In this document: positions 57,001-63,000 of the stretch, in pieces
Numbering within the stretch: position 1 is the stretch's first letter
Layout: each line of letters opens with the position of its first letter
Assembly (NCBI RefSeq): GCF_045037415.1
Contig: NZ_CP173440.1
DNA from: Escherichia coli
Lineage (GTDB): Bacteria > Pseudomonadota > Gammaproteobacteria > Enterobacterales > Enterobacteriaceae
Reading direction: 5' to 3' (one strand)
DNA: 64,000 bases
Made by a program: the position numbers

Positions 57001-60000
57001 GGAGTCGGAGCGGGACGGCCTGCCTGTGGTTAATGCAAAGCGGGTGTATCGCATTATGAGAACGCATAATCTGCTTCTTGAACGTAAACCCGCTGATCCT
57101 TGCCGTAAGCGGGCCCATAAGGGGCGCGTAGCAGTAGCGGAAAGTAACCGGCGCTGGTGCTCAGATGGCTTTGAGTTCCGCTGTGATAATGGCGAAAAGC
57201 TGCGGGTGACCTTCGCGCAGGACTGCTGCGACAGGGAGATCATTGACTGGGCAGCGAGCACCGGAGGCTATGACAAAGAAACGGTGCAGGATGTCATGCT
57301 GGGTGCGGTGGAAAAACGCTTCGGAAGGCAGTTGCCAACAGTGCCGGCGTTCGCCCGGTTGCTGGGACTGGAGCCTTGTACGACAGCAGTGCGAAGCCCG
57401 GAAAGCAATGGCATAGCAGAAAGCTTCGTGATGACGATAAAACGGGACTACATCAGCATCAGGATTTTAGGGGTCTGACGCTCAGTGGAACGAAAACTCA
57501 CGTTAAGCAACGTTTTCTGCCTCTGACGCCTCTTTTAATGGTCTCAGATGTCCTTTGGTCACCAGTTCTGCCAGCGTGAAGGAATAATGGCCGAGCATAT
57601 TGATATGTCCGTGGCAAAGCGGGGAGAGGCGTGCGATATCTTCATCATTCAGTGTTTCACCCTGCGCCCGGAGATGATCCAGGGCTGCCTGCATATAAAT
57701 AGTGTTCCATAACACGACGGCGTTAGTGACCAGCCCCAGTGTGCCCAGTTGATCTTCCTGACCGTCGGTATATCGTTTTCTTATCTCACCTTTTTGACCG
57801 TGACAGATGGCTCTGGCAACGGCATGGCGACTTTCTCCCCGATTAAGCTGGGTCAGAATGCGCCGGCGGTAATCTTCATCATCAATATAATTAAGCAGAT
57901 ACAGCGTTTTGTTGATGCGCCCCACTTCAATGATTGCCTGAGTCAGTCCGGAAGGACGTTCACTTTTCAGCAATGAACGGACCAGCACTGAAACCTGTAC
58001 TTTGCCCAGCTTCAGGGAGCCAGCGGTCCGGATCATTTCGTCCCACTGAAGGACTATTTTTCGGGGATCTGATTGCCCTCTGGCAATATCATTCAGCACG
58101 CCATAGTCGGCATCATGGTCCATTCGCCAGAAAACCGAAGCACCGGCATCAGCCAGGCGTGGAGAAAACTGGTATCCCAGCAGCCAGAAAAGGCCAAAGA
58201 CAAGTTCGCTGGCACCTGCTGTATCGGTCATAATTTCGGTTGGATTCAGCCCGGTTCCTGTTCCAGAAGACCTTCCAGCACAAAGATAGAGTCCCTCAGC
58301 GTCCCCGGTATAACGATGCCATGAAAGCCGGAATACTGATCGGACACAAAGTTGTACCAGGTGATCCCTCTGTTATTACCAAAGTATTTGCGGTTCGGTC
58401 CGGCATTGATTGTTCTGACTGGCGTAACAAAGCGCATTCCATCTGCAGATGCCACTTCTCCTCCACCCCATATCTGTGCCAGTGGCAGCGTTGCCTGAAA
58501 ATCAACCAGTCTGGCATTAGCGCTGGTGATAGTTTCAGCCCGCAGATAGTTCGCTTTTGTCCAGTTCAGCCGGTGTCGGGTCAGTGCAGGAACATTTGAT
58601 CTGATCAGTGGTTCCAGACCGATATTGCAGGCTTCAGCCATCAGCACGGCGCTGATGCTGACGGGCAGATCATCAACTCTGGCACTGGCTTCACTAGCAT
58701 GGAAAAACTCATCAGCAAATCCGGTATGGGCGTTAATTTCGAGCAGCAACTCCGTTAAATCCACCGGAGGGAGTAGATCACTGATCATTTTGCTCAGTCG
58801 TTTCAGACTGTCCGGCTCATCAAGACTGGCGAGGGGAGAAATTGTCAACCGGGGCTTCGGGCCAGAAACATCGAGTTCGACAGCCTCATTTTCGCAAAGA
58901 CGTGCAGCAACCTGTCTGTAACGACTATCAAGCTGATGACCCAGAGATTTTATTGCTTCCTGCGGGTCTGTCGGGTGCCCCAAAGAACGATAAACCTTAA
59001 TCCGGTTTGCCTGCCAGTCAGCACCCTGTAGTAATCTTGCACGAGGATCTCCCCACCGGTTACTGCCGGTAACGTAGACATCCCTCCGCCTCAGACTATC
59101 CTGCAGTTTACTGAGAAAGCAGAGCGTGTATCCCCTGCGGGTGATATGTTTTTCCTTGTTAATCACCAGCCGTTTCCATGACCGACTGATAATTTCCGTT
59201 GGTGCGTCGTCAAAAAACTGCCGCCGTGAGCTGAACTCCCGGCTGAGGTAGTCACAGGCATTCAGAGTGGTAACCCCGGCAGGTGCGGATGAAAATTTAA
59301 CGGTATTCAGCAGATGGGGCAGGAAACGACGAACGCGCCCGTACTGCTCCACCATTTCTTCATGAAAATTATCGTCTGAGGGCCGGGCAATTTCACGGAC
59401 AAGCGTGATGATTTCAGCCAGCTTTTGCCTTGGGATGTAGCTGAACACCTCAGCACGAATCGATTCGTCCGGTGTTTCTTCTTTCAGCAGGTACGAACAT
59501 GCGCTGGCGAGCGCCAATGCAGATTTATCCAGATCCTTCAGCGAGCGGAGCCGTTTTTTCTGCCCAATCTTTCTGGCGTCACGGATGATAACGGCCAGCA
59601 TGGCGTCCAGAACGTCCAATGCATCATCCAGCGCCAGCGTTTCCCATGCAAGGACAAAGGCAACCAGAACCGCCATCCTTTTCTGCGGTGACATCCTGGC
59701 AATATTGAAGGCACTGTTGCAAAGTTAGCGATGAGGCAGCCTTTTGTCTTATTCAAAGGCCTTACATTTCAAAAACTCTGCTTACCAGGCGCATTTCGCC
59801 CAGGGGATCACCATAATAAAATGCTGAGGCCTGGCCTTTGCGTAGTGCACGCATCACCTCAATACCTTTGATGGTGGCGTAAGCCGTCTTCATGGATTTA
59901 AATCCCAGCGTGGCGTTGATTATCCGTTTCAGTTTGCCATGATCGCATTCAATCACGTTGTTCCGGTACTTAATCTGTCGGTGTTCAACGTCAGACGGGC

Positions 60001-63000
60001 ACCGGCCTTCGCGTTTGAGCAGAGCAAGCGCGCGACCATAGGCGGGCGCTTTATCCGTGTTGATGAATCGCGGGATCTGCCACTTCTTCACGTTGTTGAG
60101 GATTTTACCCAGAAACCGGTATGCAGCTTTGCTGTTACGACGGGAGGAGAGATAAAAATCGACAGTGCGGCCCCGGCTGTCGACGGCCAGGTACAGATAC
60201 GCCCAGCGGCCATTGACCTTCACGTAGGTTTCATCCATGTGCCACGGGCAAAGATCGGAAGGGTTACGCCAGTACCAGCGCAGCCGTTTTTCCATTTCAG
60301 GCGCATAACGCTGAACCCAGCGGTAAATCGTGGAGTGATCGACATTCACTCCGCGTTCAGCCAGCATCTCCTGCAGCTCACGGTAACTGATGCCGTATTT
60401 GCAGTACCAGCGTACGGCCCACAGAATGATGTCACGCTGAAAATGCCGGCCTTTGAATGGGTTCATGTGCAGCTCCATCAGCAAAAGGGGATGATAAGTT
60501 TATCACCACCGACTATTTGCAACAGTGCCGTGTACATCGAAATACGGCTTATCAGGCGTTAAAAGATGCTTGCGATGACTTGTTTGCAAGACAATTCAGT
60601 TATCAGAGTCTTAGTGAAAAAGGTAACACTATTAATCACAAATCAAGATGGGTGAGCGAGGTGGCTTATATTGATAATGAAGCTGTCGTTAGACTTATTT
60701 TTGCCCCTGCTATTGTGCCTTTAATTACTAGGTTAGAAGAACAATTTACAAAGTATGAAATACAACAAATAAGTAATTTAACAAGTGCTTATGCTGTTCG
60801 TTTATATGAAATATTGATTGCATGGCGTAGTACTGGAAAAACGCCTCTCATAACTATGTATGATTTTAGACAAAAAATAGGTGTACTCGAGACTGAATAC
60901 AAACGAATGTATGATTTTAAAAAATATGTTTTAGACATTGCATTAAAACAAGTAAATGAACATACCGATATTATTGTCAAAGTTGAACAGCATAAAACAG
61001 GTAGATCTATTACTGGTTTTTCATTTAGCTTTAAACAGAAAAAATCAGCCACGCATTCAGTCGAATCTAAAAGAGATCCGAATACATTAGACCTCTTTTC
61101 AAAAATAACAGATAAACAACGCCATCTATTCGCCAACAAGCTCTCAGAGCTTCCTGAGATGAGTAAATATTCACAAGGCACAGAAAGCTATCAGCAGTTT
61201 GCTGTACGTATAGCTGCCATGCTGCAAGATGCAGAGAAATTTAAGGAATTACTTCCTTTACTCAGAAAATTAGGATTTCAATGACATTGTTAATTGAAAT
61301 TGTTAAGTTAACAGTCAGGTATTAACACAAGTTGAAAACTGGTTTACATAATGAAAAAACTGTCAGTTTCAGAGTTAGCTAAGCTTTATGGATATTCAAG
61401 ACAAGCCATATATGCACATATAAACAAAGGAAATTTATCTAAAGGATCTGATGGATTAATTGACTTTTCAGAGGCCCTAAGAGTTTTTGGGGAACCACAA
61501 AAAAAAGAGGATACAGTCAATCAAAGTCAATCAATTAACAGTCAAAACTTGACAGAAGTTGACTTACTAAAACGTCAAGTTGACATACTGGAAAAACAAT
61601 TAAATCAGGCAATACAGAGAGAAAATCAATCTTTAGAACGTGAATCGTTTTATCAAGAACAGATTGAAGCTATGCAGCGCTTACTAGAAGCACCAAAAGC
61701 CAATATGACTACCTTTACCGATCAGAGCTTTAAACAGGATATAGCAACGGATCCTCGGTCGGAACTAGCAACGAACTATGACGAATTGACTACTCCTCAG
61801 CAAGACAATAAGCGTATTCCTATCCCGGAGCATGTTGAACCAGAACAGAAGAAGAGAGGCTTCCTAAGCCGCTTTTTCCTTCCATATGGTTAGCCAAGAC
61901 TCCAGTTTTTTGAAGAGCCAATTTCAGTGCAAGCACTTGAAATAATGACTCCTCAAAAAACCGGATGATGTTTATTAAAACTGAATAAAACCGTGGAACA
62001 TCGCTCAATTAGTGATCGTGGAACATGAATAATCAATAAAAAGCCGTTCTGGTGCCCTATACTCCAGAACGGCTTACGTTAATATAATGATATTTAAAGA
62101 GAAATATCAAGCATTTCGTATAAGAAATTTTATGTTAAATGATTGTTAGAAATGCCCCTTGATCGAGGCATTTTCTATAAAGAATACTAAAAACTAATTA
62201 AAGCCAACCAAGTTTCAAAACAAGGCAGTTCTCAGCAATCATATTTTTAAATTATATAACTCCCAACTGAGCTTTTGCTCCAACGATAAGGCTTTCATTT
62301 TGAGTTTCTAAGGCAAATAAACCATACATCAAAGGAGAGGCCGCTGCTCTTTCTAAAGTCTGTTCATATAGTTTATTCCAAACTTTACCCCCTAGTTTTT
62401 CATACTCGATGATTAGAGTTTTGAGGCTTTCTTCTCCAAACAAAGTTACATGCCCAGCAAAATCAATCGCTGGGTCATCTATATGGGCTGTTGACCAATC
62501 AATAACGCCTGAAACAGCTCCATCCTTTGAAGCTAGTACATGCCCAGCATATAAATCGCCATGTATAAATTGGGTGAAATCTGCCCATAGAACATCATTA
62601 TCCAACCATTTTCTGTAGCGGGTTTCCAATTGCTCACTTATACCAATTTCAGATTTTACTAACTGCAAATTGTTTGCTATTTCAGGTCTTAAATCTGAAG
62701 GTTTCATAATTTTCAAATCATTTTCCCGAACTTCTTTTTCAGGAATACTATGGATTTCAAATAAGGTTTTTGCCAAAGATGTTATGTATTTCGGGCTATC
62801 TTTGTCCATATTCCAAATTATTTCATAGGTTTCAGCATCCAAATTTAAAACAGGATTATCTTTAAGTATGGGATAAGCCACTAATTCTGTAGATGAAATT
62901 CTCCAATCAGGAACCTCTACAGAAAGATGTTTTTTTACCAATTCTAAAATGCGTTTTTCTTTCTTGATTTGTTCCCTCATGCCATCACGACGAGGAATAC

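Follow-up and report, generated by a model that had tools for sequence, protein, structure and literature searches.

IS26 copies in the window and the allele of copy 4

We examined the insertion sequence IS26 in a stretch of 64,000 nucleotides of Escherichia coli DNA (contig NZ_CP173440.1, assembly GCF_045037415.1), which as a whole is referred to here as the window. IS26 copies were located by properly spaced pairs of the 14-bp terminal repeat across the 64-kb window, which gave four complete 820-bp copies, all with perfect 14-bp terminal repeats and each encoding an intact 234-aa Tnp26 transposase: copy 1 at 30823-31642 on the plus strand, and copy 2 (42445-43264), copy 3 (44284-45103) and copy 4 (59710-60529) on the minus strand, copies 3 and 4 being in the same orientation. 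Copies 1-3 carry the standard allele and have zero nucleotide differences among them, while copy 4 has the same base as these copies at 817 of 820 positions (99.6%), the sole differences being at nt 341 and nt 613-614. The GG>AA change at nt 613-614 (59916-59917, minus strand) turns codon 184 from GGC into AAC (G184N), and the G>T change at nt 341 (60189, minus strand; an A on the plus strand) turns codon 93 from CGG into CTG (R93L). An initial annotation of the window had assigned these two substitutions to copy 4 and identical Tnp26 proteins to copies 1-3, and the nucleotide alignment of the four copies agrees with it in these assignments and in the coordinates.

In structure, copy 4 is 820 bp long with perfect 14-bp terminal inverted repeats (GGCACTGTTGCAAA), the right inverted repeat (IRR) lying at 59710-59723 on the plus strand and the left inverted repeat (IRL) at 60516-60529 on the minus strand. 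Its tnp26 open reading frame (ORF; 59762-60466, minus strand; 234 aa plus stop) is intact, and the product, Tnp26 R93L/G184N, is WP_040211370.1, with the DDE triad (D78, D138, and E173 in the 234-aa numbering) and the Pfam DDE_Tnp_IS240/rve assignment of this transposase group. No 8-bp target duplication was found at copy 4, which is flanked by ATATTGAA and GTGTACAT, and a comparison among the flanks of the four IS26 copies found no matching 8-bp duplications or reverse-complement pairs. IS26 copies at the boundaries of modules in resistance regions commonly lack a target duplication, and its absence is no argument against the identity of the element. Copy 4 is an ordinary, database-catalogued variant, not a new kind of element.

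The GG>AA change is the signature of IS26-v1, for which raised cointegrate formation was reported (Pong et al. 2019, as cited in PMC9019673, PMC8477213, and PMC9412624), and the statement in the initial annotation that G184N increases IS26 activity matches this published change as the citing papers present it. IS26-v1 (Pong, Harmer, Ataide & Hall 2019, FEMS Microbiol Lett 366:fnz031) shares with copy 4 the 820-bp length, the terminal repeats, the GG>AA change, and the genomic position, which in IncC plasmids and pCTX-M3 is held by IS26-v1. Copy 4 differs from it by the added 341 G>T (R93L), and the enhancement of activity in the literature refers to G184N on its own. With R93L also present, copy 4 does not show the single substitution of IS26-v1 and is a derivative of IS26-v1, not v1 itself. 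Standard IS26, as in copies 1-3, has the same length, ends, and ORF, with a Tnp26 two substitutions apart from that of copy 4. The variant v3 from Acinetobacter baumannii also carries G184N according to PMC12540391 (citing Harmer, Pong & Hall 2021, Journal of Antimicrobial Chemotherapy (JAC) 76:2213), and in this secondary source's description, on which our comparison is based, v1-v4 are single amino-acid changes, unlike copy 4. In a survey of plasmids from Klebsiella, Escherichia, and Salmonella, standard transposases numbered 6,266 and IS26-v1 transposases 1,385 (bioRxiv 10.1101/2024.02.20.581145). The secondary sources disagree on whether IS26-v1 (IS15-delta-1) is two or three bases away from IS26, with one amino-acid change; the IS26-v1 copies that we inspected (L010-L012) differ from the standard IS26 of the window by two bases, and the third reported difference may be a feature of an old reference sequence.

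Distribution and origin of the copy-4 allele

Alleles were counted in 72,556 PLSDB plasmids and 5,426 complete E. coli genomes by short queries with 27 bases on each side of the variant site, for which a 28-base megablast word seeds only on the variant. The G184N segment was present in 4,382 of the PLSDB plasmids and 1,736 of the E. coli genomes, and at least 4,128 PLSDB records had G184N with the standard nt 341. R93L and G184N occurred jointly in 23 of the PLSDB records, every one from Klebsiella pneumoniae and none from Acinetobacter, and the query for the 341T segment matched these 23 records and, at low identity and with indels, three others. The double variant was further found in two of the E. 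coli genomes, both from Alexandria, Egypt, and in CP015347, a 4.27-Mb chromosome record that we take to be Proteus mirabilis AOUC-001. An exact-protein look-up in a public collection gave at least 1,000 contigs for the G184N-only protein (P0001) and 129 blocks for the double-variant protein (P0002), including 96 blocks with contigs of 0.2-1 Mb. The source names for this protein (WP_040211370.1) are from Enterobacterales only, and it occurs in dozens of K. pneumoniae plasmids. R93L had been described at the outset as an unfamiliar change, which stands for the literature searched, where neither R93L in connection with IS26 nor the accession WP_040211370.1 was mentioned, but not for the sequence itself, which is not novel: sequence databases already contain the R93L allele, although that literature does not describe it.

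Having located the allele in other records, we compared its position by extracting IS26 plus 25-30 bases per side from each fetched double-variant copy (L001-L009, L013, L014, and L020-L023). The 820-bp allele was identical to copy 4 in L001-L009, L013, and L020-L023, and the allele together with both flanks was identical in L001-L002, L004-L009, L013, and L020-L023; L014 sits at the same position with a one-base indel in the assembly and is annotated as frameshifted. On the IRR side, the flank was common to 15/15 double-variant copies beyond the window's own, all copies checked sharing the junction TTCAATATTGCC with a Tn3-family tnpA fragment, and on the IRL side the flank GTATTTCGATGTACAC was common to 14 of the 15, with L003 as the exception. 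In L003, the second copy in CP015347, the IRL end lies at the armA-side junction, a place occupied by a standard IS26 in the K. pneumoniae plasmid p4313/18_1, and this copy is a junction of two known flanks, as recombination between two IS26 copies would give, not a new target site. The backbones of the double-variant copies were diverse, comprising IncHI1B/IncFIB plasmids, IncFII/IncR plasmids (including two named KPC plasmids), E. coli plasmids, and the CP015347 chromosome. Among the genomes examined, no double-variant copy was found at a new insertion site, while the same plasmids hold several standard IS26 copies. A single G184N-bearing place was seen in 22 of the 23 double-variant PLSDB plasmids (E. 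coli genomes carrying G184N have a median of 3 places), and this single-place pattern fits a copy that has not proliferated, although a young neutral base change would give the same picture.

In CP084395, the region as a whole occurs twice as a segmental duplication. In CP015347, two inverted double-variant copies (L003 and L004) bracket the module running from repAciN to armA, the same Tn3 tnpA fragment and then a further IS26 transposase gene coming after each of them, and the whole unit is duplicated in inverted orientation.

The ancestral state at this position can be read from plasmids that have the same junctions. The IncC plasmids of K. pneumoniae AR_0143 (L011) and E. coli AR435 (L012) have both copy-4 junctions and hold IS26-v1 without 341T, the GG>AA change being the sole difference from a standard copy. 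Likewise, pCTX-M3 (NC_004464, L010), from which Tn1548 is known, shares the repAciN junction and holds a plain IS26-v1 there. Since plain IS26-v1 occupies both junctions in the IncC plasmids and the repAciN junction in pCTX-M3, 341T came later, in a copy whose position was already fixed. In Tn1548, the repAciN-side IS26 of pCTX-M3 shares with copy 4 the IRL junction with a truncated repAciN, after which come orf, mph(E), and msr(E), but its IRR adjoins a different sequence and it is without 341T. R93L is a single-base change made in place in an IS26-v1 copy that has kept its position; it is not a separately spreading element and did not arrive as a mobile allele of its own. Taken together, we consider it very probable that the copy-4 allele is the module's own IS26-v1 with an added, in-place 341T. 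The suggestion that the mixed IS26 alleles of the island come from separate sources is likewise borne out: copy 4 is part of the armA/msr(E)/mph(E)/repAciN module, which already held IS26-v1 in pCTX-M3 and IncC plasmids, and copies 1-3 are standard.

The most probable course of events is the following. Copy 4 is the IS26-v1 that travels with the armA-msr(E)-mph(E)-repAciN module derived from Tn1548, and together with this module, independently of copies 1-3, it entered the present K. pneumoniae NDM plasmid of IncHI1B/IncFIB type. The fixed copy then gained, in a single sub-lineage of the module, one G>T at nt 341, likely by point mutation in place or by gene conversion from a rare 341T copy. 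The allele has since been carried passively within larger DNA segments to IncHI1B/IncFIB plasmids, IncFII/IncR plasmids, a few E. coli plasmids, and the CP015347 chromosome. For annotation and tracing, which is where the practical value of the copy-4 finding mainly lies, the combination of 341T and 613-614AA cleanly marks, at a single locus, one lineage of the armA-msr(E)-mph(E) module, and the marked module is now in NDM and KPC plasmids of K. pneumoniae.

Residue 93 and the activity of the variant transposase

The conservation of the two substituted residues was assessed in the 150 top-ranking representatives retrieved from 1.84 billion proteins, with counts made on relatives of <80% identity. 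Position 93 was R in 104 of 106 such relatives, alongside the catalytic residues D78 (103/104), D138 (83/87), and E173 (73/75), and in a curated alignment of 30 sequences at 40-66% identity R93 was one of 13 invariant columns, together with D78, D138, and E173. The IS6100 transposase in the window likewise reads YLYRAVD at this place. At position 184 the residue varies (R 42, K 12, G 4, N 2, and others), with Arg or Lys aligned to G184 in 54 of 71 IS6-family relatives; the prevalence of Arg/Lys at this position means that Gly in IS26 is the unusual state. The search for a solved IS6-family structure found none, the matches being weak ones to retroviral integrases. In an AlphaFold model (mean predicted local distance difference test score, pLDDT, of 93.3), residues 75-84 and 87-96 form strands joined by a two-residue N85-G86 turn, and a helix of residues 170-184 ends at G184. 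Given this conservation and a predicted location opposite D78, R93L is predicted to weaken or abolish activity and would thereby cancel the gain from G184N. Judged from the alignment and the model, an effect of R93L would more probably be negative than positive, and we lean somewhat towards the prediction that R93L impairs Tnp26 activity.

If so, the raised cointegrate formation of IS26-v1 may be lost in copy 4, given how R93 is conserved. The initial annotation had raised the possibility that copy 4 is the more active driver of rearrangements, a role that finds no support: R93 is invariant in the family, and no double-variant copy was found at a new target site. Inactivation of tnp26 in one of two IS26 partners lowered targeted cointegration ~30-fold without abolishing it, and with DDE mutants copy-in was undetectable and the targeted reaction about 25-30-fold lower (PMC4196232). 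This residual targeted reaction with one inactive partner implies that an impaired copy 4 could still take part by way of the Tnp26 of copies 1-3, and homologous recombination would also stay open to it. Copy 4 would then act mainly as a homology patch and as a passive partner for the Tnp26 of the standard copies, not as a rearrangement driver. At the least, the description of G184N as hyperactive should not pass automatically to copies with further substitutions. If R93L proves inactivating, it would provide the first functional assignment for an invariant non-DDE residue of the IS6-family catalytic core, a modest advance.

Several points weigh against an impaired transposase. The putative placement of R93 in strand beta2, across the beta1-beta2 hairpin from the catalytic D78, is inferred from strand boundaries. 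Furthermore, R93 aligns with a hydrophobic V in the integrase of mouse mammary tumour virus (MMTV), and therefore DDE catalysis elsewhere in the wider fold can accommodate a non-polar side chain at this position. A young neutral single-nucleotide polymorphism (SNP) would equally be without new insertion sites. The alternative is that R93L is neutral and copy 4 an ordinary hyperactive IS26-v1, confined to one locus only because the SNP is young. The intact ORF in nearly all double-variant copies, the hydrophobic residue at the aligned position in retroviral integrases, and the epidemiological success of the lineage, as seen in the 96 blocks that carry the protein, favour this alternative; however, R93 is conserved like the catalytic triad in relatives down to ~40% identity, and none of the genomes examined showed a new insertion site even though the same plasmids hold several standard IS26 copies. 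We regard neutrality as plausible but rather doubtful.

Exchange between alleles and the surroundings of copy 4

The allele was also found with its two changes separated. A protein with 341T in the absence of 613-614 AA (P0003) occurs in 8 contigs. Three of the copies (L015-L017, in CP173541, CP145360, and JBLLMH010000054) have 341T with the standard GG at nt 613-614 within the same plasmid and module lineage, two at positions usually held by a standard IS26 and one at the copy-4 junctions. These copies look like hybrid alleles from recombination or gene conversion between IS26 copies, and therefore exchange between nt 341 and nt 613 does happen. Mixed IS26 alleles thus let recombination between IS26 copies be traced, as the 341T-only hybrids show.

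Other observations count against an origin of 341T in place. Copies with 341T alone also occur in two seemingly unrelated contexts, an Acinetobacter integron (L018) and a beta-lactamase contig (L019), and an R93L-bearing IS26 may have moved earlier or the mutation may recur; in addition, allele copies were read from 24 of the 129 blocks carrying the double-variant protein. The double variant could then have arisen by recombination or gene conversion of IS26-v1 with an older, rare R93L-only IS26 and no fresh point mutation, for which the existence of 341T-only copies, two of them in these seemingly unrelated backgrounds, and the 341T + GG hybrids of the same plasmid lineage, including the one at the copy-4 junctions, would be the evidence. 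In PLSDB, however, 341T never occurs without 613-614 AA, and most 341T-only copies are in plasmids or modules that also hold the double variant (e.g., CP173541), a co-residence that fits derivation from the double variant and not the reverse. We therefore consider such a recombinant origin unlikely and retain a change in place in the module's IS26-v1.

It is quite improbable, in our judgement, that R93L is a selected modifier of the hyperactive G184N transposase, either as an attenuator that would stabilise the armA/NDM island or through altered DNA handling near D78; if this were true, the persistence of the allele across backbones and species would reflect selection and not hitch-hiking. A sequencing or assembly error as the source of the three-base difference, for which the assembly-type frameshift of L014 might be quoted, is refuted by the recurrence of the identical three-base allele in many independent assemblies (Italy, Switzerland, Czechia, Egypt, and others), leaving it a negligible chance.

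The immediate neighbours of copy 4 are a truncated Tn3-family tnpA fragment (57535-59709, minus strand, left boundary approximate), which adjoins the IRR end, contains a 482-aa ORF, and is annotated as a partial transposase in a related record, and a truncated repAciN/repM replication gene (60530-61284, plus strand), which adjoins the IRL end and opens the Tn1548-derived repAciN-orf-mph(E)-msr(E)-armA module. Beyond the IRL end, the order is truncated repAciN/repM, then orf, mph(E), and msr(E). Over positions 44284-64000, the window matches at 99.99% identity the K. pneumoniae plasmid p4313/18_1 (L009), an IncFIB/IncHI1B plasmid with blaNDM-1, aph(3')-VI, qnrS1, armA, msr(E), and mph(E). Copies 3 (standard) and 4 (variant), in direct orientation, enclose a ~14.6-kb segment with blaNDM-1, ble, aph(3')-VI, ISKpn19, and qnrS1 (44284-60529 with both copies), its gene content being taken from the 99.99% match to p4313/18_1, and this unit is formally a pseudo-compound transposon with unlike IS26 alleles at its ends. 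Within it, a lone exact 14-bp IS26 terminal repeat (TTTGCAACAGTGCC) at 55133-55146 has no adjoining IS26 sequence and maps, by position on p4313/18_1, between ISKpn19 and qnrS1; it was rejected as a fifth IS26 end, being an isolated 14-bp repeat only, and may have been left behind by an IS26-mediated deletion or be the terminus of a different element.

The remaining copies lie in a part of the window that is arranged differently from p4313/18_1. Copies 2 and 3 (42445-45103), in direct orientation, flank a 271-aa ORF that we recognised by eye as, presumably, aph(3')-Ia (aphA1), an arrangement that looks like a Tn4352-type pseudo-compound transposon. Ahead of copy 2, positions 38333-43264 hold an 880-bp IS6100-like element (ends GGCTCTGTTGCAAA) followed by three ORFs and then IS26 copy 2; by eye we take these ORFs to be mphR(A), mrx, and mph(A), the usual macrolide-resistance module. 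The 7.6-kb block 30823-38426, which contains IS26 copy 1, intI1-dfrA5-qacEdelta1-sul1, IS4321, chrA, and padR, is inverted relative to p4313/18_1 (L009 1-7604), a difference that is an IS26-associated inversion or insertion between sister plasmids, and between copies 1 and 3 the window has ~12.6 kb of material additional to that plasmid.

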